18,744 nt of DNA, from IMG/VR virus record IMGVR_UViG_2636415906_000001, one strand, 5' to 3'. The position numbers and the translations under genes were made by a program. Position 1 is the first letter of the stretch. Each line of letters opens with the position of its first letter. Of the stretch, positions 789 to 16,440 are shown piece by piece. This DNA is from a virus (lineage: Duplodnaviria; Heunggongvirae; Uroviricota; Caudoviricetes). The notes under the pieces were generated by a model, which had not been told where the DNA came from, made no database searches, and saw nothing but the letters and a program-made list of their open reading frames with translations.

Positions 789-1311
789 TGTGAAGGCTGA
801 AAAGTAAGAATTAGTGTTACGAGTTACTCAATATTGAATCTGTTTGTAGAGTGTTGGCTTCAATGCCGCATTGTAGCTGGTTTCTTTCTAATGCGGTTTT
901 TGATTATGTACACCCTTATGTACACAGTTTTTTCTGGTGCTATCCGCGCAATTGAAGGTGTGGGCATAATTTTGCCTCTATTGTGATAATCACAATTCTT
1001 CTTGTGTTGTGCTCATCATCCAGTTCATCGAGTTTCTACCAAGAGCGTTTTACGCGCTGGCCGAAGCTATTTTGGTTGCTTTGGTCTGAAGCCATTACCT
1101 ACATCCCTCATGATTGAGGTGTGTAACCATGTTCAGGCTCGTTGTCCTGTGCGCGCGTATTGCTCGTGAAATTGCTGTACACAATTAAGCTCTGCGATAT
1201 TAGGTTTTATAAGGTTCTCGCATCCTTGTGAGGCGGCAGAATCAGTAAATACCTGATATTCCCGCCAACGAAAAAATGCGTTGGCTGGCAGAGTGCAAAT
1301 TTGCACGATGA

Positions 1312-1371
1312 CCTAACCCATTGATTCTTTCGAAAACCCCCATTGGGGGAAATCCTAACCCATTGATTCTT
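1312..1371. repeat. Two perfect 18-bp direct repeats (cctaacccattgattctt) flanking a C5-ATT-G5 hairpin
   Basis: Copies at 1312-1329 and 1354-1371 are identical; cccccattggggg at 1337-1349 lies between them. A tgcaaatttgca palindrome is just upstream at 1294-1305. Non-coding context. Confidence 0.8.
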
Positions 1372-1464
1372 CCACAATCCTCAATTTGAGGAAGCCGAAT
1401 AACACCATTTTTATAGCTCCGATCCCTTCAAAGTGAGGGGTAATTTGCCAAAACAGAGAGAGCA

Positions 1465-1752
1465 TTACTGTCTCTGGCAATCTTTATCGCGATAACGCCT
1501 GAAGTACCCTCTCGCTTCCTCATCCATACCAAGAGCCGAATGAGTTCGCTTAACTGCCTGTCTTAAATCTCCGAATCTGTCTGTAGTTGCTGGTGGGCGT
1601 GCCGCCTTACGGATACATTCAGAGCGCCTGTTTGCTGCATGTTCACGTTCTTTATCGCCATTTGCCAGCATCATGACTTCTGCCCATCGTGCGGCAGCTC
1701 TCCGGTATAGCCCTTTTGACTCCAGCTCTTCAGCTTTCCTGTCCCTTATCAT
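1465..1752 (-). CDS. PerC-family transcriptional activator-like protein (95 aa)
   Basis: The motif AEELESKGLYRRAAARWAEVM resembles the conserved PerC-family core (AExLExxGL(W/Y)RRAAxRW) common in P4-like and prophage islands. Basic small protein. Family assignment is from memory. Confidence 0.55.
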   Translation of the reverse strand: MIRDRKAEELESKGLYRRAAARWAEVMMLANGDKEREHAANRRSECIRKAARPPATTDRFGDLRQAVKRTHSALGMDEEARGYFRRYRDKDCQRQ

Positions 1753-1788
1753 TTCTGCCTCTCAGATTATATAGATAAGCAAAAAGGC

Positions 1789-1909
1789 GTTGGTTCAGTT
1801 GGTTCAGTTGGTTCAATTTGTAAAGGGTATTGTTTTTATTGTGTTTTTTCTAAAATATTGAACCAACATCAACTCATTTTGAACCAACACAGCCCAGCTC
1901 TGAACCAAC
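1789..1909. repeat. Iteron array: three tandem GTTGGTTCA 9-mers, then three inverted copies (TGAACCAAC) at exact 21-bp spacing
   Basis: Tandem copies at 1789-1797, 1798-1806 and 1807-1815. Reverse-complement copies at 1859-1867, 1880-1888 and 1901-1909. The array sits in the divergent intergenic region between the PerC-like and RHH genes. Confidence 0.85.
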
Positions 1910-1962
1910 AACACAGCGATAGATTTGTGATTGGTCCGTTATTTTCTGGCTGATATTTGAGC

Positions 1963-1993
1963 GTATAACAGTGTTATACAGTGGTATACTGTA
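1963..1993. promoter_or_regulatory. Two overlapping palindromes (GTATAAC-agt-GTTATAC and TACAGT-ggtat-ACTGTA) just upstream of the RHH gene; candidate operator
   Basis: Inverted repeats read directly at 1963-1979 and 1977-1993, 19-31 bp upstream of the candidate start codons at 2012 and 2024. Confidence 0.4.
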
Positions 1994-2011
1994 TGGATAT
2001 TACTCACTGAT

Positions 2012-2467
2012 ATGGTCTTTGCAATGAGCAAATCTAATCTGGTCGCGTTCCGCATCCCATCTGAATTGCAGGATGAGTTTAATCGGTCTGTTCTCGCTTC
2101 TGGAGGGGATAAAACCTCCTGGCTTGTTGATGCGATTCGCATGAAGCTGGGGCAGCCGGAAAAGTCTATTGATTCACGAATGCTTGGGCTGGTGGAGCGC
2201 ATGGAAAAAGCCGCTGCGTCGCTTATTGCCGGAAAGCCGAACATCCCACCAAAACCATATAACGAAACGGCAGTTATAAAGATCATTGCCGATACCATCC
2301 AACAGGGATTTGATAATGGGCGTGTGATAGCTGAACGGATCAATGAAGCAGGCTATCAAACAAAAGCTGGTAAAGCGTGGGATAAAGATATTTACAGCGC
2401 GTGGAAGCGTCAGGGAAGCAATGCTGAAAAGTTATCAGTGGCGCTACATTCAGCGCCATCGCTATAA
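2012..2467 (+). CDS. Ribbon-helix-helix (Arc/MetJ/CopG-like) DNA-binding protein with a C-terminal extension; alternative start at ATG 2024
   Basis: N-terminus NLVAFRIPSELQDEFNRSVLASGGDKTSWLVDAIRMKL has the beta-strand plus two-helix pattern of RHH regulators. No clear Shine-Dalgarno, so the start is ambiguous. Convergent with the Abi gene, 1 bp apart. Confidence 0.55.
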   Translation: MVFAMSKSNLVAFRIPSELQDEFNRSVLASGGDKTSWLVDAIRMKLGQPEKSIDSRMLGLVERMEKAAASLIAGKPNIPPKPYNETAVIKIIADTIQQGFDNGRVIAERINEAGYQTKAGKAWDKDIYSAWKRQGSNAEKLSVALHSAPSL

Positions 2468-2468
2468 T

Positions 2469-3431
2469 TTATTCAATATCAAATAAATGCCTTGGGAAAC
2501 CGTTATTATCAGGTAATCCCATGGCTGTCAGGTTACATCCTGGTAAGTTAGGCTTGTTATCTACAAGGTTGGCAACTTTTTTTATCCAGTCAGATCCCGG
2601 TCCAATTTTTTTCACTAAAAACCATAACACAGCGATCATTCCGTACATTCTTTCGTACGCATCATCATTCATATTTAATTGCTCAAAGTACGGCTCATTT
2701 GGCAAAGGCATTAATCTTGGTTCGTTGACCTTGTTCCAGATGCGTGAATGGTGAGCGCACCGATTCCTTAGCACATTCATTGCGCTAAGCCAGTTTTGGA
2801 AGATAGCTCCATTGCCTGCCGCTATCCCTAGCCTAGATAGTATCCTGTTGCGATAGCTGTCTTTTAGCATCGCATAATACTTTGACATTAAGCCGAAGTC
2901 CCATACTTCAATAACCACCCAGAAAGGAAGACCTTCGTACTTGTTTTCATGCCATTTGATAAAGTCTTCGCGACTTTTAGCAATCTCGGCATTATGTTTA
3001 TTTATCCATTCTTCTCTGGCGCTTGGGCGACCATGGGAACGTGGTCTAAAGTGTTTTGGATTTATTAGCGAGTCATCAAGATATGCTAAAGGAGATATCT
3101 TACCAAGCTCATGAGCAATAACTGACCGAACATAAACCTCAATGCGTTCTAACGCATTCATCATCTGCAAACGCAGATTTTTATCGAATAAATAGAGGTC
3201 ATATACTGCGCGAAAATTAGTACCTGGACGAACCTGATCGAGTCTGGTTCTAATATTGTCTGTTGTTATATGGGGGATTCGGCAGGGGTACCAAAAGCCT
3301 GATAATCGGTAGTAGCCTACTTGTGAGATTTTCTTGATAGCATGTTCGCGATCTGGCACATCCATACCCCGAGACAGCAATAAATCGACAAGTTCATCAT
3401 ATTCTTTATGAACCTTAACCGGAACAGCCAT
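2469..3431 (-). CDS. Abortive-infection protein, Abi_2 family (AbiD/AbiF/AbiD1-like), 320 aa
   Basis: Abi_2 hallmarks as I recall them: N-terminal EYDELVDLLLSRGM...GYYRLSGFW and the central motif LRNRCAHHSRIWN. The gene is visibly AT-rich compared with the core operon. Confidence 0.85.
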   Translation of the reverse strand: MAVPVKVHKEYDELVDLLLSRGMDVPDREHAIKKISQVGYYRLSGFWYPCRIPHITTDNIRTRLDQVRPGTNFRAVYDLYLFDKNLRLQMMNALERIEVYVRSVIAHELGKISPLAYLDDSLINPKHFRPRSHGRPSAREEWINKHNAEIAKSREDFIKWHENKYEGLPFWVVIEVWDFGLMSKYYAMLKDSYRNRILSRLGIAAGNGAIFQNWLSAMNVLRNRCAHHSRIWNKVNEPRLMPLPNEPYFEQLNMNDDAYERMYGMIAVLWFLVKKIGPGSDWIKKVANLVDNKPNLPGCNLTAMGLPDNNGFPRHLFDIE

Positions 3432-3810
3432 ACAAAAGGTTTCCTACCTCCAGATACAAGAAGGCCCGGCCATAACAATTTCTCATCTAAGACAAGATAA
3501 AGCCAGGGGGCCGGGCTCAGTTGAGTGTAACTCTATCCGAAGTTATCCACATGTCAATGCACAGTTACTTAGGAAACTAACATAGGTACTATCATCACTC
3601 ACGAAAAACCACTATATGTGGTTTTTATTCATATCGTTATCCACTACAGGCTGTGTCAATAACTTTTACCTATTAATTGGGTAATTTCTACATTTTCCTA
3701 TGCTGGCTAGTTTCTCTACTGAAAAGTTGGCACTCCTTAATCGCTTTTCGGTTAATACTATCGGTCTTCATATTGCCAGCAGCATACGCCATCCGATAAT
3801 TTCGATGCTA

Positions 3811-4112
3811 CGCGCGCGTACTTGTCGCAAAATATCAGGCAAAGGCCAGATTCAGAACGTCGTGATAACCACCAGCACAACATGAGATGTCATGTAACAC
3901 GATTTATCACATCAGATACATGTGATTGGTGTACCCGCATAAAACATCGTCATAGCGCGTCCTGTGCGCATATACGCCGATAATCAACACATCACCACCA
4001 CTCTGTCTCGTGTAGAGAACAGTTTCATGGTATCCCCCGCCATCGTGTGCGTACTGGTCGGACGTAGTTGCAAAATTTTTTGCAACTGATACCCCTCGCG
4101 CGCGTACTTGTC
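3811..4112. repeat. Perfect 16-bp direct repeat cgcgcgcgtacttgtc at 3811-3826 and 4097-4112
   Basis: Read directly. The copies flank about 270 bp of non-coding DNA in the gap between the Abi gene and the membrane-protein gene. An inverted aatttcga/tcgaaatt pair lies adjacent to the copies. Confidence 0.7.
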
Positions 4113-4305
4113 TCGAAATTGGTGTTTTGCTGTGGCAGTGATATCAGAAAAATCTTCCTGTTTCACATAAAGCGGATATGCGCGTACTGTAACGGCCCCA
4201 TCAACTGGGAGCGGATTTGAAATCCCGACCCAAGCTATGTACCAAATGCCATGTCTTGGATATATGATGATTGCCATTCTAAACAAAGCTAAAGGGAGGG
4301 TTGGT

Positions 4306-4662
4306 GTGAGGGGGCAGGCAGTTATAATTATTTTGTTGGGTTTAATTGTCGCAAAGTTATACCCGACTTTATCGATGGTGTTTTTTGCCATTATTGGCGC
4401 AGCCATCTTTACTTATATCATTAAACATACCGCCTTGTGGTTCTATAAAATTGATATAGTTCAGAAGTTTGTACGTCCTGTGTCAATGTTATTACTAGCA
4501 TTAATACCAATTGGTGTTGCTTATGTAATTGATGTTTTTTACCCTTCGGACACTGAAAGGTGGTTGATAGTTTTGTATTGTTATATTGGTGTAGCTCTCT
4601 TTTGTGGATTTCATTGGTGTTTCGAAAAGATCAATGACTCTATTTCAAAGAATAAAGATTGA
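4306..4662 (+). CDS. Small integral membrane protein (about 118 aa, 3-4 predicted TM helices), GTG start
   Basis: Strong RBS AGGGAGG 5 nt upstream of GTG 4306. Hydrophobic stretches (IIILLGLIVAKL, FFAIIGAAIFTYII, LLLALIPIGVAYVIDVF, LIVLYCYIGVALFCGF). AT-rich. Ends 20 bp from the convergent 705-aa gene. Confidence 0.45.
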   Translation: MRGQAVIIILLGLIVAKLYPTLSMVFFAIIGAAIFTYIIKHTALWFYKIDIVQKFVRPVSMLLLALIPIGVAYVIDVFYPSDTERWLIVLYCYIGVALFCGFHWCFEKINDSISKNKD

Positions 4663-4676
4663 GGCCATCCGTGGCC
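4663..4676. terminator. Short GC hairpin (GGCCA-tccg-TGGCC) between convergent genes; possible weak bidirectional terminator
   Basis: 5-bp stem with a 4-nt loop exactly between the stop codons at 4660-4662 (plus strand) and 4682-4684 (minus strand). No clear U-tract. Confidence 0.2.
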
Positions 4677-4681
4677 ATTCA

Positions 4682-6799
4682 CTAGTCATTATCTGGATCA
4701 TTAGATAGCCAAGTAATGATGCCCAGTCTGGCGATGGTCCGTTTTTCCTGTTCAGGAAGAGAGTTAAAAAAACTCTTCCATTGAGGGGAGCGCCTGATAC
4801 GTGAATCAACAATGTGCCCAGGCGCTTTTCCGTGTAGATTTTTTACTGCGCTCTGGAAGGCTGGCGAGGCAATTAATTTATCCGCAGCATCAGCCGCCCC
4901 TGCTCCACCAGCTAATCGAGCTTTACTCGCCAATCTTGCTCCAATATCAGCCCCAGCAATGGCTCCAAGCGATCCAAAATGAGCGCCTACCATCGTGCCT
5001 ATTTTTTGAATGTGTTTTGCTGCTAGTTCGTATGGAGCTGTTACCCGATTAAATCTGTTTACAAACTCATTCAGCTTACCAGTAGATATTTCATGCGCTT
5101 TAGCATTTTTTATTGCTCTGGCAACTTTGTATACATCATATAGTCCGCTCATTGTTTCTTTTGGCAAATGTTCAGCCAAAGTCTTTAGCTGTCCACTGTG
5201 TTGCAAGTTTTGCCACCAATCTGCAAAGCCAGATGGATTAAAGTCGGCCCCACGCTTCCCAGAGGAAAGCATATCTCTTAATGCTGTTCCTACTAGCTCC
5301 CTTCGCAATGTTCTTGATGGAGTATTTTGCATAATCTCACGAAACCCTCTCGCATCACCTTTTGCCATAGATTGAAGAGAATTCGTTACTTTATACGCTA
5401 TATCCCCATTAAGTGTTTTCCCGCGAAGATTTACCATTTGCCTTTCTAAGTTTTTTCTCATAGCTACAAGGCGTTGTGCGACTTCGAAATCTCGCAAGTA
5501 TCCAGTATTGGATAAGACAGATTTTTGGTCTTCAGCTAAAGCTCCATATAGTCTTGATAGCGCTTCTTTATCAGCATCTTTGTATGGCCCCTGCTTTTTA
5601 TTTAGGGCATCACCAACTAAACGCCTTTGCCTGTTTAAATTTGCATACGTTAGGATGCTATCTGGGCCGGGGTTTATTGCTGTAAAAACTCGCTTTTCTA
5701 TTGGGTCAAGATTATCCCACCCTCCTAAATCATCAGCGATTTTTTCCAGCATAGTGCTTGTGTTATTTGCTTCGACTTTTGTTCTTGGTGATAGAGCGGA
5801 ATCAACACGTTTATATAACTGATCACTACGGTTTTTTAGTGCTTCCATTCTACTATTTATCTGATAAATATATTTTTCGCTCATAGCTAACGCATCTGGC
5901 GCACCAGCAACATCATCGATTATCTTGCCAGCACTAGAGGCTAATTCGCTTATTGCTTTATCTTCTTGAGCTTTTAACGCTGATCCTGTCCGTGACTTTA
6001 GGGCTTGCTCTACAGCTTGGTATTGCTCATTTCCTGATAAATGAGAAGGAAGAACTGAATCAACATGAAGCCTATTTGCAGCCTCAACAATTTCTTTCTG
6101 AGGTTTTAGATCTAGCCCTTCAAGCGAAGAGGCAAGATTTGGGTTGCCTTGTGCAGATAACTTACGAATTTTCTCTTCGGCAGGAGTAATCCCCTCAATA
6201 TCTGGAATCGAAGAAACATTCTTCTTGGTTAATTTCCCAGCTATTTTATTAATTGCAGGGCCAGCAAGTTCGGCTACAGGGCCAGCCACAGCGCCAATAG
6301 CAGCGCCGGAAGCAACATCGCTATTTGTTCCATTGGCTACAATAGCCCCTTCTCCAGCACCAAGCCCTGCGGCGGCAGCCAGTCTTGCCGCCCCTTTGGG
6401 AACCTGAGAAATAATCCCACCACCACTAACAAATGGCGCTGCTTGTCCAACGAACTCACCAACATCTTGTGCGGTTGATGGTTTTGCCGCTAACTTCTGC
6501 TGTAGAGACTGAATTGCGGCTTGCTCTTCTGGTGTCATATCCTGAAACAGGCCAACACCTTTACCAACATCCATCAATCCACTGAGAACGCCATACATAA
6601 AACGGTCGAAACCGTTAGCATTATTAACAACATTTTCCTGTCTGGAATTTTCCTCTGGTGAAACCAAAGGTGATTGCTGCTGTTCTGGTTGGGCATCAAG
6701 CACAAAACCATCAGGAAGCTGTGAACTATCAGGAAACTGTGAGTTATCAGGTTGTTCATCGAGCACAAAACCTTCCGGTAAGATTACATTTGCTGCCAT
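4682..6799 (-). CDS. Large hypothetical protein (705 aa): acidic repeat N-terminus, Gly/Ala-rich segment, coiled-coil-like middle; no recognisable enzymatic motif
   Basis: Long uninterrupted ORF with ATG start at 6797-6799, overlapping the upstream 451-aa gene by 16 nt (translational coupling). N-terminus LPEGFVLDEQPDNSQFPDSSQLPDGFVLDAQPEQQQ; AAAAGLGAGEGAIVANG...GAVAGPVAELAGP tract. No signal peptide or Walker motif seen. Confidence 0.8.
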   Translation of the reverse strand: MAANVILPEGFVLDEQPDNSQFPDSSQLPDGFVLDAQPEQQQSPLVSPEENSRQENVVNNANGFDRFMYGVLSGLMDVGKGVGLFQDMTPEEQAAIQSLQQKLAAKPSTAQDVGEFVGQAAPFVSGGGIISQVPKGAARLAAAAGLGAGEGAIVANGTNSDVASGAAIGAVAGPVAELAGPAINKIAGKLTKKNVSSIPDIEGITPAEEKIRKLSAQGNPNLASSLEGLDLKPQKEIVEAANRLHVDSVLPSHLSGNEQYQAVEQALKSRTGSALKAQEDKAISELASSAGKIIDDVAGAPDALAMSEKYIYQINSRMEALKNRSDQLYKRVDSALSPRTKVEANNTSTMLEKIADDLGGWDNLDPIEKRVFTAINPGPDSILTYANLNRQRRLVGDALNKKQGPYKDADKEALSRLYGALAEDQKSVLSNTGYLRDFEVAQRLVAMRKNLERQMVNLRGKTLNGDIAYKVTNSLQSMAKGDARGFREIMQNTPSRTLRRELVGTALRDMLSSGKRGADFNPSGFADWWQNLQHSGQLKTLAEHLPKETMSGLYDVYKVARAIKNAKAHEISTGKLNEFVNRFNRVTAPYELAAKHIQKIGTMVGAHFGSLGAIAGADIGARLASKARLAGGAGAADAADKLIASPAFQSAVKNLHGKAPGHIVDSRIRRSPQWKSFFNSLPEQEKRTIARLGIITWLSNDPDND

Positions 6800-8127
6800 T
6801 TTCCGTTCCTGTAAATGATTTTCTGACCAGTTTTAGGGTTGGTTGCCGTTGCGCCTTCTGATATTCCTCCGGTTGCCGCTTTTGCCTGTCCAGTGCCAGC
6901 CTGTGATGTAGGCTGCCCGGAAACATCGTCAAATAGCTTCGCTTTCCTTCTTTCAAGGCTTTTTCTTAGCCCCTGAGGAATAGTTTCTCCATATGTATCG
7001 AGATACTCGTCAACCTGCTGGTTAAACTGCTGCCCCATAGCATTGGCGTTGATTTTTGCGGCGTTAACAATGTTATCCTTTGCCTCCTGCGACAGGCCGT
7101 TTCCAGCATTAAGCTGGTCTATGTATCCTTTGATTTGTCCCCATATGCCATCAGACCGCATTACCTGAACCTGTTCGCCTTCACGAACGACTGACTGCGG
7201 GTCAAGAGATTTCATGTAGTTGAAGATAATCCCAAGTTGGGCAGCGCCAGTATTTACCTTGCTAAGGGCTTGCAGAGAGTTTGCCGCCGCTCTGACAGAG
7301 TTATAATTTTTGCCAAAATTGGTAATGTCAGAATTTAATCCCTTAATTAAGTCTGCTGACGGCTTACCTTTTTGCCCCAGCTCCATTAGCTTCAATCCCA
7401 TCTCATCTGAGTGAATTTGTGCTCGCTGAGCCCTGTCTAGTTGAGCGTTCTGGATATTTGCCCATCCTCTCGCGTTCTCCATGTCAGCCTGACGCATACT
7501 TTCATCCAGTCGCCCTTGCTCAAGTCGACGACCTTCCATTTGATCTTTGATATCGAAATACTTCTCATGACCGAGAGAAAACAGCGCCAGATTACCTGCG
7601 AAATGCTGGAAGCCCTGCGGGTCATTAACCTGCATTTCAGCAATAGTTTCTGGAGGGATACCTAAACGACGCATCTCCTGCTCATTATCCATCATGAACC
7701 TGCCAAATGCGCCCTGACCAAGCGATGAGGCTACCTGTGCTTTGAGCGCCAGATTGCCATAATCATCCCTTTGAGCATCATCGACATAACTCATCCCTTT
7801 ACGGACTTCCTCAAACTCTTCTGGGAATGCTGTAATAAGATTACGCATCTGCTCCCTGTCACCGGACGCATAAGCATCTGCATAACCTTTCTGGAATGCC
7901 GCTTTACGCTCCTGCTGTTGCTGCTGCTTATAAATATCAGCAACTCCAGCCAGACCACGAAGACCTGTCAGAGCAACGTTATTTGCACCTGATCGAGCCA
8001 GTTCATTGTTTTCGCGGATCAGACCAAGCGTTGCGTTAATGTCGCTTGCCTTTGGCGCATTCTCATTTTGCGTACCGATGCCAGCCAGAAAACCACCAGA
8101 ATTAATACCCTGTTGCCACGTAGCCAT
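6784..8127 (-). CDS. Hypothetical coiled-coil, Gln-rich protein (about 447 aa from ATG 8127; ORF track extends to GTG 8139)
   Basis: Long ORF; the ATG at 8125-8127 overlaps the stop of the upstream 57-aa ORF. QQQQQ run and low-complexity A/Q/N/G-rich sequence. No enzymatic motif recognised. Confidence 0.8.
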   Translation of the reverse strand: MATWQQGINSGGFLAGIGTQNENAPKASDINATLGLIRENNELARSGANNVALTGLRGLAGVADIYKQQQQQERKAAFQKGYADAYASGDREQMRNLITAFPEEFEEVRKGMSYVDDAQRDDYGNLALKAQVASSLGQGAFGRFMMDNEQEMRRLGIPPETIAEMQVNDPQGFQHFAGNLALFSLGHEKYFDIKDQMEGRRLEQGRLDESMRQADMENARGWANIQNAQLDRAQRAQIHSDEMGLKLMELGQKGKPSADLIKGLNSDITNFGKNYNSVRAAANSLQALSKVNTGAAQLGIIFNYMKSLDPQSVVREGEQVQVMRSDGIWGQIKGYIDQLNAGNGLSQEAKDNIVNAAKINANAMGQQFNQQVDEYLDTYGETIPQGLRKSLERRKAKLFDDVSGQPTSQAGTGQAKAATGGISEGATATNPKTGQKIIYRNGKWQQM

Positions 8128-8131
8128 AAAT

Positions 8132-8305
8132 TTACCCACGTCCAGTTAAAGTGTAAGCCAGCGCCTTATCCATTAATCCCCGAGCAATTTCGTGGATCGT
8201 TGGCGCAACTCCTACCTCTGATTTTTTACGCTGCTCCTCCTGAATTTTCTTTATCGCTTCCATTTGCTTCTCACTTATCAATACTGGCTTTACTGAAATA
8301 GCCAT
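8132..8305 (-). CDS. Small protein (57 aa, MAISVKPVLISEKQMEAIKKIQEEQRKKSEVGVAPTIHEIARGLMDKALAYTLTGRG), first gene of the operon; possibly RHH-like
   Basis: Below the ORF-track length cutoff; translated by hand. Strong RBS AAGGGGG 4-5 nt upstream of ATG 8303-8305. The stop overlaps the start of the 451-aa gene. Confidence 0.5.
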   Translation of the reverse strand: MAISVKPVLISEKQMEAIKKIQEEQRKKSEVGVAPTIHEIARGLMDKALAYTLTGRG

Positions 8306-8320
8306 AACGCCCCCTTATAA

Positions 8321-8344
8321 CTGTATAAAACAACAGTCATTATA
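8321..8344 (-). promoter_or_regulatory. Candidate SOS-regulated promoter: perfect -10 TATAAT (8339-8344, minus strand) followed by a LexA-like box CTGT-N8-ACAG (8321-8336)
   Basis: Plus strand aaCTGTATAAAACAACAGtc resembles known SOS boxes such as umuDC, and overlaps the predicted transcription start about 30 nt upstream of the 57-aa ORF. No convincing -35 was found. Confidence 0.4.
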
Positions 8345-8400
8345 GTTTCATAAAACGCAACATTCATCATTGTGATTGCAAAATATGAAACAAATAGCAC

Positions 8401-8433
8401 AAAAAAATGCCACCGTTCAGTAGCTGGTGGCAT
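8401..8433 (-). terminator. Rho-independent terminator for leftward (minus-strand) transcription
   Basis: 8-bp stem ATGCCACC/GGTGGCAT (8407-8414 with 8426-8433), 11-nt loop, followed on the minus strand by TTTTTT (plus-strand A-run 8401-8406). It separates the satellite core operon from the cargo operon promoter. Confidence 0.65.
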
Positions 8434-8803
8434 CGTTCTGTATGTCAGGTTTTGACAGTTTTTTTATGGACTCTAAAAACTATATTTATGGAGTCGCATT
8501 ACTCTTCACGGCAGGCGCTTTCCAGTTCTGCCCTTGCTTCTGGCTCCATTGGTAATTTGATTCGCGATCAGCTATGCGGATGGTTTGCTGAACAGGCATA
8601 ACAACATCTCAGAGGCTATTTTTTGAACTACGAAAATTTCGTAGTGCTCACCTTCAAAAACGTCACGCCCTTGTACACTGGATTTTACAAAAGTCTCGTA
8701 AAACTCTTTGCTGTTCTGGGCTATGTGCCAAACCGCAGCGAATACCTCCGTCTGCCAGATGAGCAAAACATACCTTATAAAGAAAATCGCTGTTTTTGCT
8801 GTA

Positions 8804-8902
8804 CCACCTGTACCACCATGTCACAAACCCTTGTGTGGCGCGGCCTGCAGGTGGTACAGGTGGGTAAAAATGACCTCTCCCCACCTGTACAGACCTGTAC
8901 CA
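8804..8902. repeat. Cluster 1 of the GGTGGTACAGGT(GG) motif in both orientations
   Basis: Copies read at 8804-8817 (rc), 8850-8863 (fwd), 8881-8892 and 8893-8902 (rc, partial), immediately downstream of the 245-aa gene. Confidence 0.75.
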
Positions 8903-8907
8903 TTTAT

Positions 8908-9645
8908 TTAATTTTTACCCATAGCAGCACATAATCCCTTTTTTGAAATATTGAAAAATGCGTTCATTCTTCCCGCTGGCTTAACCTTGTAGCCGCTTGC
9001 CACCATCGCCGCAATAAATGCTCCGTTGGGGATATAGTGCGGGTGATCACTGTGCTGGTGGTTTATCTGGTTATATCGCTCCACTTCATGCTTCAACGTG
9101 TCAGATGTGGGGTTATCCTGCGGGAAGCTCTCAATCTGGGCATTACTCATCCCGTTGTCTCTGATCCATCTCAGGCAGCTTTTCGCCGATACGATAAATG
9201 ACGGGTTATCAAGCGGGTTTTCCCAGTCCGCATTCCGGTTGTGGAGCGCCAGTCCGTCAAGGTTAAATTGTGGGTATTCAGCGGTAATTACTGTCACTGC
9301 GTGGCGGATTTCAGTTTCGTCACAACATGGCTCATCTCCCACACCAGCAGGGTAATAATCTGAACCACCGGGACTGATACAGCTTTTACCACTGAAAGGC
9401 CATTGCTTCGCCATTTCGGGTGTTGAGTGATTACCGTCGCTCCGTTCGCGCTGTGCCTCTGTCCACTGGCTGGCATATTCAGTAAATGAAACTCTTTGCC
9501 CCTGGCGCATCCAGTGCGCAATCATAATTAAAGTGCGTTCCAGACTTTGGATGTCGCCAGCATTCCCGCACTGTGTAGCGAAACTTTTTAATTCTTCGCG
9601 CTCCGTTCTGGTCATTCCCTGCAGTATGCAATAGTTATTGTTCAT
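8908..9645 (-). CDS. Hypothetical protein (245 aa)
   Basis: ORF overlapping the upstream 76-aa gene by 11 nt. No family recognised. Confidence 0.65.
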   Translation of the reverse strand: MNNNYCILQGMTRTEREELKSFATQCGNAGDIQSLERTLIMIAHWMRQGQRVSFTEYASQWTEAQRERSDGNHSTPEMAKQWPFSGKSCISPGGSDYYPAGVGDEPCCDETEIRHAVTVITAEYPQFNLDGLALHNRNADWENPLDNPSFIVSAKSCLRWIRDNGMSNAQIESFPQDNPTSDTLKHEVERYNQINHQHSDHPHYIPNGAFIAAMVASGYKVKPAGRMNAFFNISKKGLCAAMGKN

Positions 9646-9865
9646 GTTTTACCTCTCTGATTTCTGCTGCCATATCTGTTGGCTCTATACAGCCGTCCCG
9701 ACTTGCCACGCAGGGAATAATGATTTCAACGGTATCGCCGTCAATACACATTTCAACATTCGCCCATGCCGCAATGGGTAGCCAGTCTGAACGCCCCTCA
9801 AACCGTAGCTGCCAGCCAGAGGAAGAAGCTAACTGGCGCACTTTGTAAAATGGTGTGCTCATCAT
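9635..9865 (-). CDS. Hypothetical small protein (76 aa)
   Basis: ORF with GAGG about 10 nt upstream of ATG. First gene after the primase-proximal motif cluster. Confidence 0.55.
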   Translation of the reverse strand: MMSTPFYKVRQLASSSGWQLRFEGRSDWLPIAAWANVEMCIDGDTVEIIIPCVASRDGCIEPTDMAAEIREVKHEQ

Positions 9866-9915
9866 TGGTTGTTTCCTCTCAGCCAGCCAGAAGAAATGCG
9901 TTTGTTAATGGTATA

Positions 9916-10012
9916 GGTGGTACAGGTCTGGTATAGGTAAGATATTGACCTGTACCACTATAACGCACTGTTTTTAATACTGAATTAGCAAAGTGGTATA
10001 GGTGGTACAGGT
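9916..10012. repeat. Cluster 2 of the GGTGGTACAGGT motif, between the primase stop and the next gene
   Basis: Copies at 9916-9927 (fwd), 9948-9958 (rc) and 10001-10012 (fwd), plus repeated GGTATAGGT. The same motif as cluster 1, about 1.1 kb away. Confidence 0.75.
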
Positions 10013-10041
10013 AAAAACGATCTTCTTGTAAAAAGACTATA

Positions 10042-12393
10042 TTAAAAAACATCATAACCCCCCATACCGATCAGACGGGCAAACGCAGCCTGTAGAACTC
10101 CGACCTCTGGTAGTTCGTAGAACACGCCATTCCCTCGGTCTGGTCTTCCATGCTTCACCAGCCCCATTTGTGCAAGTGATTTACCCAGTAGTGATCTGGC
10201 TGCTGGCTCTTTAAGCTTTTCCCCACGCTCAAGCGACCACGCTACAAATCGACTAACCATATCCTTTGCAAACAAACGGACTTCGCCATTAAACGGAGGT
10301 TCATTGATTAGCTCGCCATAAAGAAACAATTCAACGCCAGACAGCCCCAGCAAGATTTCTTCACGTAAGGCATCGGTCTGTGGCGCTCGTTGAGGGTCAA
10401 AACCTGAGAGATCCACCCCTTTAAGATGCCAAAGCAACTTTGCGGCACCGCCATCATTAAGCCAACTGTACAGCCGATCAAAATACTCCCGACTCTGTGC
10501 TTTTTCAGGAGATGGCTCAAGCACGAGATAGCGACGCTCTCTTATCCCTGCCTGTAATACCTGTGTGCTGTTACTGGCAAATATCAACCGGGCAAAATTC
10601 GGCATTGGTTCAGCATCAATTCCCTTGCGCTCAAGGTTAAACGTCGGTTCGCTAATAATCGCTTTAAGTCTGTCAGCTTCAGACGGCTTGTGGATCGTCA
10701 CTTCGTCAGCAAATACCAGTAGCTTGTTAGCAAGTATTGAATTGAAGCGCCCTGAAATATGTCCCGCCCCGTTAATGTGGGCGGCGTACTGCCCCAGTAT
10801 TTGCAGCAGCGGTTTAACCGTTGTGCCTTTCCCTGTGCCCGGGACAGATTTCATCACGATTGCCACGGACGGTTTTTCATCAGGCTTTTGGATAATGTGC
10901 GCCATCCACTGGATAAGATATTGGTATGCCTCCTCATTACCGGCACAGACAACCTGCAACAGGTGATTAAGGTATACCGTGCAATCTCCTTCAATTGGTT
11001 CCAGTGCCAGCCCCTCATACAGATTAAAAACATCGTCAGGGCATTTGTCTGGTACTGGATAAAATCCTACGCCTCCTGGCTTGTAGTTCTTCCCACTCCA
11101 TGACAGCCACGCCGATCCCGCCAGCTTTCTGGCGACTCTCGGTTTATGATGAAAATAATGCTGAAATTGTGATAAATCCTCGAAAACGTGCGATACACCG
11201 CCGGTTTGAGAAGGCTTTAGCGACACCACCTTGTGTTTCCCGCCGATGGTGACATGCGTAAACGTCCGGTTGATTTCTTCGAGGACAGCAATTTCATCAT
11301 CGCTTAACACCTCGCCAGAACTGATCTCATTCAGCGCCCCGACTGACTGTTTGTGATTTTTCACCTGCGCCCCTTTCCCCCGTGGCTGGTACATCGAATC
11401 TTTAAATGCTGCTGTGGCTGCCGCCAGCCCGTGTTGTTGGTGATAGTCGTTCCAGTCGGCTTTATAGTCAGTCGGTGGCAGAGACACCCAGCCAGCTACG
11501 GAAATAGCGGCCCTCTCTGCGGCATCTTTCCCCGTGTTGATCCCTCCACTTTCGGAGTTTCCTTGCTGGTGATCGTTATCTGCGGCAATGATGATTTGTG
11601 CCTGTGGATATGTTCTGCGCATGACTTCCGCTACTGGCAACAGGTTGCCAGCGTCGATTGCTGCCACTGTCATTGCGTCAGGGCGAATTAAATGGCACGA
11701 CAGGGCGGTAGCCACCCCCTCAGCAATTATGATGCTGTGAGGTCGTTTCTGTGCGTTTATGGCGTGATATGCCCCCCGCTTTGCTGAACCTGTCAGGAGT
11801 CTTTTTTCACCATGTGAGGTAATAGTCTGTGCTGCTGTTACTGCGCCGGATTTATCCACCAGCGCCAGCAACAGAGATCCATCGGGCAACACGGGGAATG
11901 TAAAATCACCTACCCCTTTCGCAACCAGATAATCAGATTTGCCGTTTACAGCCTTTCTGCGCATGTCATCAAACTGACGGGAAAACGTATCCCGTCTTTG
12001 TTGTTCGTCCTTCTCTGCCCTTTTCAGGCGCTCCTGTTCGCGTCGCTGGCGCTCGGTTTCCAGTTGTTCCCGTTTCTGGCTGGTGGCTTCTGGTGTTTCC
12101 GTTGTCCGGTAATCAATACCCAGAACATCAGCGGCAAGAAGCGCCGCCTCTGTTGTGTCGCAGTTATTTACGCGTTTAATTAAATCCAGCCCATCACCAG
12201 CGCCGCACTGATTACAGATGAAGCTACCGCGCCCGTTGTCATCGAACCGGAATCGATCTTTGCCCCCACATGCAGGGCAGGGAGCATGACGGCGCGGAGA
12301 GTCAGGGACATTTATGTTCAGGCAGCCCAGCACATGAGGCCAGTTGTTTTCAGACGCACTGATAACCTGACGGATAAGATCAATGTTTCGCAT
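10042..12393 (-). CDS. P4 alpha-like primase-helicase (zinc-binding N-terminus, TOPRIM primase, C-terminal P-loop NTPase/helicase), 783 aa
   Basis: Cys-rich motif CPACGG...CNQCG near the N-terminus; toprim-like IIIAEGVATALS and AADNDHQ; Walker A VPGTGKGT in the C-terminal half. This is the typical P4-family satellite replication protein architecture. Confidence 0.9.
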   Translation of the reverse strand: MRNIDLIRQVISASENNWPHVLGCLNINVPDSPRRHAPCPACGGKDRFRFDDNGRGSFICNQCGAGDGLDLIKRVNNCDTTEAALLAADVLGIDYRTTETPEATSQKREQLETERQRREQERLKRAEKDEQQRRDTFSRQFDDMRRKAVNGKSDYLVAKGVGDFTFPVLPDGSLLLALVDKSGAVTAAQTITSHGEKRLLTGSAKRGAYHAINAQKRPHSIIIAEGVATALSCHLIRPDAMTVAAIDAGNLLPVAEVMRRTYPQAQIIIAADNDHQQGNSESGGINTGKDAAERAAISVAGWVSLPPTDYKADWNDYHQQHGLAAATAAFKDSMYQPRGKGAQVKNHKQSVGALNEISSGEVLSDDEIAVLEEINRTFTHVTIGGKHKVVSLKPSQTGGVSHVFEDLSQFQHYFHHKPRVARKLAGSAWLSWSGKNYKPGGVGFYPVPDKCPDDVFNLYEGLALEPIEGDCTVYLNHLLQVVCAGNEEAYQYLIQWMAHIIQKPDEKPSVAIVMKSVPGTGKGTTVKPLLQILGQYAAHINGAGHISGRFNSILANKLLVFADEVTIHKPSEADRLKAIISEPTFNLERKGIDAEPMPNFARLIFASNSTQVLQAGIRERRYLVLEPSPEKAQSREYFDRLYSWLNDGGAAKLLWHLKGVDLSGFDPQRAPQTDALREEILLGLSGVELFLYGELINEPPFNGEVRLFAKDMVSRFVAWSLERGEKLKEPAARSLLGKSLAQMGLVKHGRPDRGNGVFYELPEVGVLQAAFARLIGMGGYDVF

Positions 12394-12405
12394 TCTGGCC
12401 CCCGT

Positions 12406-13008
12406 TTAGTGCGTCACTGGTGCTTCTGGGATGCCGTTTTCGTTTAGTTCGGCAATAAAGCTGTTGTGAAGATCGGCAAGCACTTCTCGCCCAAACGAAG
12501 TGAGTGTTCCCTGTTCGACATCGAACATGTTGCTGTAAAAAATGATGGCATTCTTTGTTCCGACATCAACACCATATTTCTCGATCATTGCGCCCTCAAT
12601 GTTGTTTGCCATAGCGAGGCGCTCTGCTACTGGATACAGCGGCATGGCGACGATGCCATTGGAATAAACAGAAACCACGGAATGATTGCCACTGTCATCA
12701 ATAATGCTGACGGTGCCGTTTTCCTTTCTCATTTCATTGATGAATGCTGTTGCTATCAGCCAGCGCCACATAATCACGTGATGCTGTGATGTGTAATCGA
12801 AATATCCCTGGTTGCCGCCATCGGCTATAGCGAGATGTATTGACATACCTTCATCTGGTTTATCGTCATAATCCCCGGCATCCAGACGATTTACGGCATC
12901 AATATATGAGACGGTCTCAACGCGTTCTGTCATGCCATCGTTGCTGCGGTGCATGATGTTTACGCCGTCAGGCGTTGCTTCTGCCTGGAAAGTTAAGAAA
13001 TTATTCAT
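12406..13008 (-). CDS. Hypothetical protein (about 200 aa from ATG 13008; ORF track extends to 13113)
   Basis: The ATG at 13006-13008 overlaps the upstream gene's stop by 8 nt. Located 12 nt upstream of the primase start. Confidence 0.6.
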   Translation of the reverse strand: MNNFLTFQAEATPDGVNIMHRSNDGMTERVETVSYIDAVNRLDAGDYDDKPDEGMSIHLAIADGGNQGYFDYTSQHHVIMWRWLIATAFINEMRKENGTVSIIDDSGNHSVVSVYSNGIVAMPLYPVAERLAMANNIEGAMIEKYGVDVGTKNAIIFYSNMFDVEQGTLTSFGREVLADLHNSFIAELNENGIPEAPVTH

Positions 13009-13222
13009 GTTTCGCCTCGCCTGAATGATTCTGTAACTCATATTTGCCCAACAATTCGTCTGCTTCCTGAATAGCTTCTGGTACGCCATTGAGCAGTGAC
13101 ATAACCGCGCCAATCATTAACTTGTCTCTGTTGCTGGGGCTGGCCCCTTCAAGCCAGAACCCTAAAACAGCCTGAACCTGTTCGATGCGACATTGCGCTT
13201 CAATGAGCTGGATGTTGGTCAT
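13001..13222 (-). CDS. Hypothetical small protein (73 aa)
   Basis: ORF with a 4-nt ATGA-type overlap with the upstream gene; part of the coupled operon. Confidence 0.55.
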   Translation of the reverse strand: MTNIQLIEAQCRIEQVQAVLGFWLEGASPSNRDKLMIGAVMSLLNGVPEAIQEADELLGKYELQNHSGEAKHE

Positions 13223-13482
13223 TTCGCACTCTCCGCATCGATTAAACTGATATCTATCAGGGAGGTAACTTTTTGTAGCCAGCTATTGATTACTGTCGCC
13301 TGTTCCCCTCCCACCGAGGGAATAATCTCATTCATCACATGAACCAGACCTGTGCGCGCTCTGGTAAGCCGTTCAGTCGCGCAATCTGCGGGAGTGAATG
13401 TGTCTGGATATGGCTCTTCGCGCCCCAGCAATGATTCAATTTCCAGCTCACACGGATGACGATAAATTAAGTTGATATTCAT
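13219..13482 (-). CDS. Hypothetical small protein (87 aa)
   Basis: ORF with GGGGGTG RBS 5 nt upstream of ATG; 4-nt overlaps with both neighbours. Confidence 0.55.
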   Translation of the reverse strand: MNINLIYRHPCELEIESLLGREEPYPDTFTPADCATERLTRARTGLVHVMNEIIPSVGGEQATVINSWLQKVTSLIDISLIDAESAK

Positions 13483-13673
13483 TTTTCACCCCCAAGAATT
13501 ACCAGCTCGGCACGGGCATCGTTAACCAAAGATGAGCACGCTTTAATCGCATCCACGACATCAGCAGCGTCCATTTCTTCAGCCGAAAGACTGACAGCAA
13601 CCAGGACATCCGCTGCTTGCTCGATTAATTGAAGTGCGGACGTAAGGCGAGGGGTATTAATTGAGTTATTCAT
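13479..13673 (-). CDS. Hypothetical small acidic protein (about 64 aa from ATG 13673)
   Basis: The internal ATG at 13671-13673 overlaps the stop (13666-13668) of the upstream 342-aa ORF; the ORF track's longer version would overlap that gene. Confidence 0.5.
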   Translation of the reverse strand: MNNSINTPRLTSALQLIEQAADVLVAVSLSAEEMDAADVVDAIKACSSLVNDARAELVILGGEK

Positions 13674-14694
13674 TGGTTGCCCCCGTTTTGCATGGCATTT
13701 GTCCACCTTCCAGCAGGAAATGAACGTCACGAACGGCGAGATCCAATATCGCGAGTAACGCCTTCAGCCTTTCGTCTCGTGAGGGAGAGTTGCTCACCAG
13801 AATGTCGTTAATCACTTCTGTCAGTGTGATGATCTGGCTTGTGCGTTCGAGGGGATCCATATGCACATCGTAGGTTTTAATCATGTGCCACCTCCATGCG
13901 GATACGACCAGCAAAAAAGCAGACGTGATCGCGCACCAGAGAACGGCGAGCATCGCGTTCAGACTCGGCAGCAATATGATGAATTTTGGCGGTAATTGTC
14001 GGGCAATCGCGGCGAACTGCGGCGATAATCCAGATAAATTGCGGTTTTTGGGTAGGGGTAGTAGCCAGCATGTGGCAGCCTCCTTGATTGATGGTTTATA
14101 GCCACCGCCCAAGAGACCAATCTTGCTGGCGGTGGACTGTACGGAGTTGGCCTTACTGGCAATCAAGGAAACCAGCCTACCCGAAGGTAGCCCCATACAG
14201 CCCACCATTGATAAGGTGTGCGTGTGCGCCGATACAAAAAAAGACGCTGGCGCGTCATGTATCGCCTCGATTGTCAGCGGGAGGCCAATCCCGGCACCCG
14301 TTTTATGAGGTGCCTTATAACCATAAACCGTGTTGCCGCATAACGGCAAGCTCTTTTTTATGGACTCCGAAAACTCACTATTGGAAGAACCAGAAGCACA
14401 GTACATCGCGCTCATTTCGTTAACGTCACGCGCATGGACGAAGGTTTTTGTGGAGTCACTACGCGAGAAGAGAAAGCCATCTACGACCAGAAATTCTCTG
14501 GCGCAGCCGCTGACCTTCTCAACGCTAACACCATCGACCGTAATTTCTGACATGGTTAAGGCATCCGCTCCTACCACCAGCAAATGACAAACTTTGCTTG
14601 TATCTGCTGTATTAATGCCTGACTTTGCTGTCATATTGCTGGATTTTGGCGACATACCAGCCAGTGAAAATATCTTCTTCTGGACGGTTAGCAT
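13666..14694 (-). CDS. Hypothetical protein (342 aa); Ser/Thr/Gly-rich N-terminal two-thirds, hydrophobic segment, C-terminal helical tail
   Basis: Long uninterrupted ORF with GGAGG RBS 8 nt upstream of ATG 14694. No family recognised. Composition changes along its length, so a sequencing frameshift or fused domains cannot be excluded. Confidence 0.5.
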
Positions 14695-14870
14695 TTGTTA
14701 ACCTCCGCGAACTCCTTCATGAAACGTGCCAGCGGTTGTACGCATGGCGATTGATACCCGTCGCGATAAAACGTCACTCGGTTGTGAGACACGCTTTCGA
14801 CAGTAACGAGTGCTCCGTGGGCACCTTTGTAGCGTTTTTGTGGTTGTGGTGTTCCTGTCGGCTTAAACAT
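14688..14870 (-). CDS. Hypothetical small protein (60 aa, [60 protein letters not shown])
   Basis: GGAGG RBS 7 nt upstream of ATG 14870. The start overlaps the AntA-like gene's 3' end by 8 nt and the stop overlaps the next gene's start. Confidence 0.45.
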   Translation of the reverse strand: MFKPTGTPQPQKRYKGAHGALVTVESVSHNRVTFYRDGYQSPCVQPLARFMKEFAEVNKC

Positions 14871-15696
14871 GGACCGCCTCCAGACGCTTGGCGAGCCAGC
14901 GTTGCGACAGGCGGGTGAGTTCTCCTTTGCGCTGCCCATATTCCATGCCCATATCAATTAACGTGATATTGGTGCTTTCGAGATATGAGAGGTGCTCAAG
15001 CTGTTCTGCGTTCATATGGTCGCGAGGTTCGCCAGAATAGCCATTTATCCGCGCCCACTGCTTAGCAGTTAGCCCACCAAGAACGATACGAGAAATCATA
15101 TTGCTCTCGTTTGTGTAGTGGTGTTGCTGCGTCGTTTTCCCCTGCTCGGCACGGGCCATGTTCAGCGCATCGCACATTGGCTTAAAGTTGTTTGCGGCAC
15201 TGATACGGGCTTTTAGCTGGCGACGATAGCGGGCGGCGATTTCAGGCACGGTACGCTGTAATTCTTCCTCGCACTGGATGAAATAACGACGGATAGCGCG
15301 ACCCTGATCATTGCGTTCGATCATTGCCAGTTCTTTCGCCATTCCGACACTTAACAGATAGTCTTTGCCGGGTCTGCCAGAGTGCTTAATCTTGCTGTAA
15401 GCCGCGCCATTCGGGCTTTTCCCCAAATTTGGGGAAATTGTTTTATGGACTGAGTAATCGTGCCCAATGGTGAAGTCATATTCAGAGATGCGATCAGTGA
15501 TCCATGTAGAGAAGTCTTTTCCCACGCCCAACGCTTTGTGTAACGCTTTTGCGCTAACAATATTGGTTTCACGCCCACCTATATGACCAGAAATAACCGG
15601 GACAATTGCGGCAAATTCATTACCGTTAATTGTGCCCAGAGAGGCGTTCAGATGAGGGGCGGCCTCAGAAATTAATCTGCTTTTTTCGATGTTCAT
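14863..15696 (-). CDS. Phage antirepressor-like protein, AntA/AntB (Rha-like) N-terminal domain with a C-terminal extension (277 aa)
   Basis: SAKALHKALGVGKDFSTWITDRISEYDFTIGHDY...GRPGKDYLLSVGMAKELAMIERNDQGRAIRRYFIQCEEEL follows the AntA-domain pattern as I recall it. GGAG RBS 9 nt upstream of ATG. Confidence 0.7.
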   Translation of the reverse strand: MNIEKSRLISEAAPHLNASLGTINGNEFAAIVPVISGHIGGRETNIVSAKALHKALGVGKDFSTWITDRISEYDFTIGHDYSVHKTISPNLGKSPNGAAYSKIKHSGRPGKDYLLSVGMAKELAMIERNDQGRAIRRYFIQCEEELQRTVPEIAARYRRQLKARISAANNFKPMCDALNMARAEQGKTTQQHHYTNESNMISRIVLGGLTAKQWARINGYSGEPRDHMNAEQLEHLSYLESTNITLIDMGMEYGQRKGELTRLSQRWLAKRLEAVHV

Positions 15697-15708
15697 TTTC
15701 AGTCTCCG

Positions 15709-16140: not shown

Positions 16141-16358
16141 CAGGCCACCTTCCCGCGGCGTTCTGCCAGCCAGTTATTAATTTCCACCGCATCAAACGCA
16201 GTCACGTTATCTGTTAGCTTCACTGGGCGTGGAAGAGTGCCATTTTTAACCCATCTATCAATAGTAGGCAGTGAAACACCTAGCAATTCCGGCATGCGAA
16301 AGCGACGGATGTATCCAGTTGTTGGGATAGCTGATGATGCTGGCTTGTGTGCTGTCAT
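16140..16358 (-). CDS. alpA: AlpA-family prophage transcriptional regulator / excisionase-like protein (72 aa)
   Basis: IRRFRMPELLGVSLPTIDRWVKNGTLPRPVKLTDNVTAFDAVEINNWL matches the AlpA (Phage_AlpA) HTH pattern. Position between int and the primase operon is typical of P4-like and CP4-57-like elements. Confidence 0.8.
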   Translation of the reverse strand: MTAHKPASSAIPTTGYIRRFRMPELLGVSLPTIDRWVKNGTLPRPVKLTDNVTAFDAVEINNWLAERRGKVA

Positions 16359-16440
16359 ATCTCTAGTAACCTCTCTGATAGCTCATGAAGTTACTTAAAG
16401 TTTAGTGGTTGCCCATACAGTATTTCTATTAAGACTAGAA

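Follow-up and report, generated by a model that had tools for sequence, protein, structure and literature searches.

Does an abortive-infection gene carried by a mobile island act by itself, or does it travel with a partner? The question is raised by the abi gene of the IMG/VR virus record IMGVR_UViG_2636415906_000001, a stretch of 18,744 nucleotides (nt) that we analysed at its full length and refer to below as the window. An earlier reading of the letters alone (the original prediction) took abi to be an Abi_2 abortive-infection gene in AT-rich cargo of a P4-like satellite, and missed a candidate RNA partner upstream of the gene. We consider it probable that positions 2469-3557 on the minus strand constitute a complete AbiF-type type III toxin-antitoxin/abortive-infection module with a divergent RNA partner, and below we set out the evidence for this interpretation and weigh it against the alternatives.

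The abi gene and its product

Judged by both its sequence and its modelled structure, the abi protein is a genuine member of the Abi_2/AbiF family with the AbiF fold. The original prediction had assigned the product of 320 amino acids (aa) to Abi_2 from two motifs and had named a profile search with Pfam PF07751 as the check; both motifs are located in the translation (GYYRLSGFW at residues 39-47, LRNRCAHHSRIWN at residues 221-233), and the PF07751 match is strong (177.8 bits against a cutoff of 25.6, E 3.6e-52, profile positions 3-184 of 184). The protein also matches the AbiD model of PADLOC over its full length (model positions 4-270 of 277, E 2.7e-57) and phrog_2158 of PHROGs, an 'abortive infection resistance protein' (E 8.7e-54), and the identical gene is labelled 'Abi family protein' in RefSeq (WP_000290520.1). 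When all chains of the PDB were searched with phmmer, a single relative was recovered, 8VZ6 (E 7.5e-34, residues 10-307), the entry for which is titled 'PbAbiF dimer bound to ncRNA'. An AlphaFold2 model of the abi protein, built on 26 homologues, has a mean predicted local distance difference test score of 92.9, and comparison of this model with the PDB by Foldseek gave the same entry as the sole significant match (E 1.7e-16, template modelling scores 0.77/0.83, root-mean-square deviation 3.2).

The active site can be placed with the help of the same relative. In the phmmer alignment, R222 and H227 of the abi protein fall opposite R210 and H215 of PbAbiF, and the double substitution R210A+H215A is reported to be inactive in the account given by PMC12373285, which cites Zilberzwige-Tal et al. 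2025. Furthermore, R222, N223, A226, H227 and H228 are invariant in an alignment of the 26 homologues. The RNase catalytic pair is therefore expected to be R222 and H227 of the RNRCAH motif, so that the 'HH dyad' put forward by the original prediction retains one of its two histidines (H227), the other predicted catalytic residue being R222. By analogy with its relatives, phage resistance with an abortive phenotype is the predicted function of the gene. Of 5,426 complete E. coli genomes, 54 carry this allele (at least 99% identity), in every case on the chromosome.

A conserved structured RNA precedes the gene

From 3432 to approximately 4236, upstream of abi, the window is without an annotated gene, yet this segment holds the abi promoter and a conserved leader RNA (Table 1). 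In the leader, an outer stem pairs 3516-3509 with 3471-3464 and encloses an internal loop of conserved bases (CCCUG / UAUG) and a variable inner hairpin; the predicted minimum free energy is -30.5 kcal/mol (z -2.2). A Shine-Dalgarno sequence and the abi open reading frame (ORF) follow the structure. A comparison within E. coli is instructive, as two Abi alleles with proteins only 51% identical share the same island slot: their upstream DNA is common to just beyond the -10 box and divergent thereafter, and both keep the long-range stem through compensatory changes (CCCGGCC/GGCCGGG vs CCCGATC/GGTCGGG).

The same structure extends far beyond E. coli. A scan of one genome per species yielded 80 homologous loci, encoding proteins 41-88% identical, from Gamma-, Beta- and Deltaproteobacteria, Nitrospirae and Cyanobacteria, and in all of these but a few truncated ones the leader motif lies 13-30 nt 5' of the start codon. 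Its consensus reads CAAYNGNGCCCRRYCCYCUG, a variable hairpin, then YUAYGRYYGGGCCUUCUUNUUU. Applied to 46 non-redundant copies, RNAalifold predicts 16 base pairs, 12 of which show double compensatory changes. Standard pairs occupy 94.0% of the cells of this alignment, compared with 28-46% in controls with the partners displaced by 1-3 columns, and none of 500 column shuffles matches the observed covariation on any measure. Moreover, across phyla the unpaired bases CC.CUG, UAYG and GGGCCUUCUU show conservation of at least 80-95%, which is beyond the needs of a plain terminator and suggests sequence-specific recognition.

A covariance model of the leader (R1) was searched against the window and 85 loci (593 kb, both strands). 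A strong match lies directly 5' of the abi homologue, on the same strand, in 76 of the 80 loci and in every E. coli Abi locus examined, while elsewhere in the 593 kb only three matches occur, all of them weak (E at least 0.01). The Abi-less cassettes of two sister islands (L003 and L004) have no R1 match. Clear R1 matches also precede two distant AbiF genes, with proteins 31% identical, on phage contigs from the human gut (E 3.4e-07 and 5.7e-06). The covariation in particular strongly supports an RNA partner of abi, widespread in Proteobacteria and belonging to no Rfam family.

A guide-like role of the leader was also considered and found unsupported, as a blastn search with the 79-nt leader against 50,697 phage records returned only chance-level partial matches (in Vibrio, Stenotrophomonas and Streptomyces phages). 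In Candidatus Electrothrix laxa, the Abi module and its leader (L032:2370-2730) lie approximately 180 nt downstream of the transfer-messenger RNA (tmRNA) gene, a location that suggests carriage on an element integrated at ssrA, and hence mobility of the module.

Promoter and terminator-like tail

A sigma-70-type promoter with at least 9 of 12 consensus matches is present in 71 of 77 distinct homologous upstream regions, and in 67 of these 71 the -10 hexamer ends 11-14 nt (usually 12-13 nt) before the outer stem. This fixed distance implies that the leader structure is the very 5' end of the transcript, and the abi transcript should start approximately 5-6 nt before the outer stem. At the opposite end of the structure, a tail with at least five T in 8 nt, located 0-2 nt from the stem (a simple intrinsic-terminator test), is found in 71 of 75 distinct homologous leaders, among which GGGCCTTCTT is nearly invariant. 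By sequence criteria only, the RNA has its own promoter before it and a putative terminator between it and the abi ORF.

Further upstream, at 3596-3668 on the minus strand, stands a second box, TTGACA...GTGGATAAC, followed by a perfect palindrome, AAAAACCACATATAGTGGTTTTT. This box (TTGACACAG...GATATGAAT) and the palindrome (about 3668-3596) are common to both E. coli Abi cassettes; the box failed our promoter scan and is not kept in Abi-less cassettes or in distant homologues. The palindrome box could be an insulating terminator or an operator.

A proposed mechanism and the evidence against it

AbiD and AbiF proteins are described as the toxins of type III toxin-antitoxin systems in which the antitoxin is a small RNA encoded just upstream, and the non-coding RNA upstream of AbiF acts both by neutralising the HEPN toxin and by bringing about premature termination (PMC12373285; PMC13064643 section 15; PMC12737573). 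With RNA-protein binding, toxicity, termination and the anti-phage phenotype all modelled on PbAbiF and the AbiF of C. difficile, the module of the window might work as follows. A constitutive sigma-70 promoter would start the transcript a few bases before the conserved RNA structure of approximately 55-60 nt, the G+C-rich outer stem and U-rich tail of which would, as in AbiF homologues, terminate most transcripts and yield an abundant small RNA. Read-through transcripts would carry the Shine-Dalgarno sequence and the abi ORF, and so give rise to the toxin. The abi protein, as in PbAbiF, may form a HEPN RNase dimer kept inactive by RNA lying over its active site, and by this analogy the RNA is most likely the antidote of the toxin. 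Infection is assumed to upset the balance between RNA and protein, or to displace the RNA, and the RNase, once released, would halt the cell before phage progeny form, which amounts to abortive infection.

Several observations weigh against this interpretation. The known abiF RNA family of Rfam, RF03085, misses the leader in searches of the whole window (E<=1) and of the 801-nt slice 3300-4100 (E<=10), and also fails on nine other loci of the abi clade. Conversely, R1 gives only weak matches to PbAbiF-like leaders (approximately 13.8 bits, E approximately 0.1), covering the outer stem and U tract only, so that the leader is no more than a putative homologue of abiF RNA, and its candidate antitoxin role is transferred by position and architecture. 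Whereas ToxI-type antitoxins consist of tandem repeats, the leader RNA occurs once. Lastly, the region taken as a whole shows no enrichment of promoter-like sites (3 vs 6.1 expected), so that the promoter call, weak in isolation, depends on cross-species conservation.

The failure of RF03085 was set against positive controls. We recovered 278 residues of the 8VZ6 chain from the phmmer alignment and used them as a metagenome query, which identified two loci (L094 and L095) that are 100% identical to the chain over these residues; the same query found no match among viral contigs. At the first of these PbAbiF loci, RF03085 scores 58.5 bits (L094:309-345), and it also matches the AbiF locus of phiC2 (37.6 bits). 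The RNA of the PbAbiF locus reads CCCGCCAAGCCUCUCAACGAUGCUCAAAUGUGCGGGU, then CGUUUUAUUUUUAUACA, then ATG, with the U tract following the RNA and the ATG 18 nt later. The weak R1 matches fall at the exact spot of the abiF RNA in all PbAbiF-like loci. No Rfam 15 family of any kind matched the leader, whether the scan covered the whole window, the slice 3300-4100 or nine homologous loci. We take the leader to correspond to abiF RNA in both position and architecture, probably as a divergent relative, while at the level of covariance models it is a separate family, with a longer inner helix and conserved loops placed differently. The leader RNA of this clade is not mentioned in the searchable literature, although the full text of Zilberzwige-Tal et al. 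2025 (Cell) may already have it.

Alternative explanations

Several alternative hypotheses may explain the leader or the module. The first, which we regard as rather unlikely, holds that the leader is only a cis-acting attenuator of a toxic Abi, relieved by a phage factor and without binding to the protein. Its terminator-like design, its position right before the Shine-Dalgarno sequence and the failure of RF03085 to match it are all consistent with this, and a precedent exists in AbiD1, translation of which is activated when the phage protein Orf1 binds the AbiD1 mRNA (PMC13064643 section 15). However, the conservation across phyla of the unpaired bases would be unexpected in a plain terminator, and the RNAs of the two characterised AbiF systems combine a cis effect with binding to the toxin (PMC12373285). 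Cis attenuation and toxin binding are not mutually exclusive, and the attenuator hypothesis is partly compatible with a toxin-antitoxin module.

A bolder hypothesis, which we hold to be unlikely, goes further than a variant of abiF RNA: the leader would represent a distinct, undescribed class of RNA that partners AbiF-family HEPN toxins across Proteobacteria and beyond, its conserved loop acting as a sensor that is cleaved, titrated or remodelled by a phage product and its variable hairpin setting the specificity among co-resident paralogues. Such an RNA would be a second, independent solution on the evolutionary path from AbiF to Cas13.

It appears quite improbable that the module serves mainly for addiction to, or stabilisation of, the island through post-segregational arrest, with little or no anti-phage role. 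A toxin-antitoxin architecture on an excisable mobile element would suit such a function, and prophage maintenance has been raised by Saunier et al. as a possible role of C. difficile AbiF (PMC12373285). Yet most sister islands are widespread despite having no Abi at the slot, where defence-type cargo of other sorts (for example, a CapP-like ImmA/IrrE peptidase) is also found, and the family is defined by phage-resistance phenotypes in Lactococcus (PMC13064643).

Very unlikely, in our view, is a riboswitch-like leader that senses a ligand or signal and turns abi on at an infection-related cue. The highly conserved internal-loop bases around a variable hairpin, and the overlap of the structure with an expression platform (terminator and Shine-Dalgarno sequence), would fit a sensor, and Saunier et al. 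speculate in a similar direction (PMC12373285); against this, the conserved core is very small (approximately 15 unpaired conserved nucleotides), the alignment shows no conserved alternative anti-terminator pairing, and the gene context yields no ligand candidate. Finally, a single-gene Abi_2 defence ORF in non-coding, AT-rich cargo of a P4-like satellite is scarcely credible, for the Abi_2 match, lower GC and variable slot that favour it are accompanied by a conserved promoter and RNA element in the upstream DNA, and P4 hallmark genes and cos were not found in an island that is EcCIMP1-like.

The cargo slot

Comparison of the window with sister islands indicates that the abi module is horizontally acquired cargo that is swapped as one cassette. 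The cassette is bounded at 3741-3802 and at 2422-2446, where homology to the sister islands breaks off. The original prediction of defence-type cargo in a variable satellite slot is supported: the same slot holds the second Abi allele in L002 and L005 (PADLOC AbiD, E 7.3e-58), an M78/ImmA-IrrE peptidase (PADLOC capP, 8e-25) with a 125-aa ORF in L003, and a 73-aa ORF in L004. In L003 (3443-4306) the peptidase is RmrA-like and is followed by the 125-aa protein, which has no family match, and the two are possibly another small defence or regulatory pair. The further proposal that the whole 1.4-8.4 kb segment is defence cargo does not stand, as the ejection-protein genes (4682-8139), perC and the ORF at 2012-2467 belong to the conserved part of the island, exchange being confined to approximately 1.3 kb.

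The GC content of the abi coding sequence (41.4%) and of the cassette (41.0%) is below that of the island core at 8908-16358 (49.5%) and of the primase gene (51.0%), in agreement with the predicted lower GC relative to the core operon; 'AT-rich' is apt in this relative sense, a difference of approximately 8 GC points not being extreme. The 'long non-coding stretches' said to bracket abi are likewise half right: the upstream side is free of annotated genes but contains the promoter and RNA, and on the downstream side a convergent, conserved and RefSeq-annotated ORF (2012-2467, plus strand) ends 1 base from the abi stop codon. We rejected this ORF as a partner in the module, because it is a conserved flank that is also present in islands without Abi. 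It has no match in Pfam, PADLOC or NCBIfam, and one weak match in PHROGs, of unassigned function.

The host island

On the evidence of its sequence, the island is a Gram-negative phage-inducible chromosomal island (PICI) of the EcCIMP1 type. EcCIMP1, which resides in E. coli MP1, is a PICI that the P22-like phage Kapi1 induces and transduces; its authors found no PADLOC or DefenseFinder system in it (PMC11773190), a result that fits an EcCIMP1 slot holding other genes. The two islands have in common the order int, alpA, antA, DUF4222, ash, icd, primase, P22-type ejection proteins and perC, and nucleotide identity reaches 94% over 12408-16150, 88% in the 3' part of the primase gene and 97% over the slot flank at 3746-4231. 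They differ in the N-terminal part of the primase and in the integrase, in the Abi cassette, which only the island of the window carries, and in their integration site, EcCIMP1 lying at the tRNA-Thr next to proA rather than at the 3' end of yicC. Helper-phage induction and packaging have been shown for EcCIMP1 with Kapi1 (PMC11773190), and by analogy may apply to the island studied here.

On the minus strand the gene order is int, orf216, an AT-rich gap, alpA, orf143, antA, DUF4222 and ash with C4 and isrK RNAs; then an icd-like gene, small ORFs, a P4-type primase, orf76, orf245 and P22 gp20-like and gp16-like ejection genes; and lastly a divergent membrane ORF, the Abi cassette, the convergent ORF, iterons and perC. 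The integrase has Arm-DNA-bind_3, Phage_int_M and Phage_integrase domains, AlpA has Phage_AlpA, and the primase has Zn_Ribbon_Prim, Toprim_3 and DUF5906. Positions 1-842 of the window are chromosomal (dinD, an intergenic region and a 21-bp duplicate of the yicC 3' end). The attachment core consists of 21 bp of the yicC 3' end, duplicated relative to the empty site of K-12; exact matching found a 12-mer repeat at best, and it was the comparison with the K-12 empty site that resolved the island end. Repeats of the ATGTACAC type near both island ends (window 822-930; L001:30860-31031) are probably integrase arm sites.

Table 1 Features of the abi module and of the island that carries it (window coordinates)
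Feature	Position	Strand	Remarks
abi gene	2469-3431	-	ATG-started ORF, 320 aa; Abi_2/AbiD-F family HEPN protein, predicted toxin RNase
HEPN motif codons R222-N-R-C-A-H227	2751-2768	-	Predicted catalytic Arg and His
T-rich tail CTTCTTGTATCT	3452-3463	-	Directly 3' of outer stem; terminator-like leader
Structured 5' leader RNA	3446-3524	-	Covariance model R1, 65.4 bits, E 1.5e-17; candidate antitoxin and attenuator
Sigma-70-type promoter	3530-3557	-	TTGACA, 16-nt spacer, TAGAGT; 10/12 consensus matches
Exchangeable cargo cassette	2447-3740	-	Upstream segment, promoter, leader, abi; approximately 1.3 kb
EcCIMP1-like PICI at yicC 3' end	843-18744	-	Extends approximately 190 bp beyond the window, by comparison with the K-12 empty site
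Integrase gene	17476-18744

The island was originally described as P4-like, an identity that we reject. No sizeable ORF of the window matches Psu, Sid or Delta in Pfam or PHROGs, a 19-nt P2/P4 cos sequence has no match in the window at up to 3 mismatches, and the architecture is collinear with EcCIMP1. A P4-family integrase, a P4-type primase, AlpA, Ash and a C4-type antisense RNA with an icd-like gene are indeed P4-like traits, but such integrase, AlpA and primase features are also common to Gram-negative PICIs. Anti-phage cargo in a variable slot is likewise shared with P4-like satellites, from which the island differs in its P22-type ejection-protein genes and in a closest characterised relative that uses a P22-like helper.

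Gp20- and gp16-type ejection proteins are the only phage-structural genes of the island, as in EcCIMP1, and there are no capsid, tail or lysis genes. They lie on the minus strand at 4682-8139, the gp20-like gene at 6784-8139 (Pfam Inj_translocase, 3e-73) and the gp16-like gene at 4682-6799 (phrog_6704/770); EcCIMP1 carries counterparts at the same position, and Kapi1 is the best phage match of the gp20-like gene (90% DNA identity). The island's ejection proteins could replace or compete with those of the helper, or could be linked to the superinfection immunity reported for EcCIMP1. Within the 'ash' ORF, at 14125-14313 on the minus strand, Rfam identifies the C4 antisense RNA (14125-14212, 79 bits) and isrK (14237-14313, 65 bits), which sit just upstream of the adjoining icd-like ORF (13877-14071). 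We interpret this region as an immunity RNA cassette of the P1/P4 type, carried here by a PICI for which the nearest characterised relative has a P22-like helper.

Several further features of the island deserve mention. A PerC-family gene (1465-1752, minus strand) has a sub-threshold match to NCBIfam ANR_neg_reg (4.2e-06), which fits the report that the PerC homologue of EcCIMP1 represses, rather than activates, the locus of enterocyte effacement (PMC11773190). Directly upstream of perC are GTTGGTTCA iterons (1789-1913; 9 matches vs 1.5 expected), arranged as two opposed sets of three, direct copies with a spacing of 9 bp (1789-1821) and inverted copies with a spacing of 21 bp (1859-1913). A related block lies near the primase region of EcCIMP1, and possible roles for the iterons are those of an operator, an origin or a packaging signal. 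Direct and inverted CCACCTGTACCACC repeats cluster at 8799-8902, between the gp20-like operon and orf245, in what looks like a protein-binding array, possibly an origin. The AT-rich gap between orf216 and alpA (16359-16828, GC approximately 0.34-0.37) is probably the main regulatory region of the island; a weak CRISPR-DR10 match of Rfam within it (21 bits, E 0.94) looks like chance.

Implications

The abi gene alone is ordinary, being already annotated and caught by standard defence finders, and the RNA variant is of moderate interest. Annotation pipelines treat abi as a single-gene system, yet a promoter and RNA unit accompany it and must be cloned along with it. The abi ORF alone is expected to be toxic, and a functional test without 3446-3557 is likely to fail or mislead. 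The leader RNA of a large proteobacterial clade lies outside the coverage of Rfam, and a covariance model for it would allow AbiF-type modules to be annotated as two-component systems in thousands of genomes. If the leader acts as proposed, it would add a second RNA architecture for the restraint of HEPN toxins by RNA, with a bearing on the relationship between AbiF and Cas13. Our analysis also shows that PICIs of the EcCIMP1 family can house a recognised defence module in their cargo slot; for this family, a defence-like phenotype had been reported without any known system.

Comparison with characterised Abi systems

With the lactococcal AbiD, AbiD1 and AbiF proteins the abi protein has the HEPN domain in common, and the Pfam and PADLOC models built on them match it at full length. 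Upstream sequences are reported to be necessary for these lactococcal systems (PMC13064643). The sequences themselves are distant, as tblastn against phage records gives only relatives of less than 32% identity, all in Gram-positive or gut phages, and unlike the lactococcal proteins the E. coli allele has no known phage-resistance phenotype.

The closest parallels are PbAbiF-AbiFr of Prevotellaceae (8VZ6) and the C. difficile AbiF-RCd22 system, with which the protein has family and fold in common at approximately 28% identity, together with the RNxxxH catalytic motif. All three systems have the same layout, in which a promoter is followed by a structured RNA (G+C-rich outer stem, U tract) and then, within approximately 20-40 nt, by a toxin ORF, and all are carried by mobile elements; the PbAbiF RNA and the leader of the window further share a CCUCU-type segment and a start codon close by. 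The RNAs differ in their build. In the window, the leader forms a stem-loop of 53 nt in which the outer stem has 8 bp, the 5' loop reads CCYCUG and the inner helix is long and variable; abiF RNA, 37 nt in length, is a 6+3-bp hairpin whose loop measures 11 nt and whose 3' bulge measures 6 nt. RCd22 (phi027/phiC2) has two motifs where the window has one, and, unlike the PbAbiF and RCd22 systems, the module described here is carried by a Gram-negative PICI.

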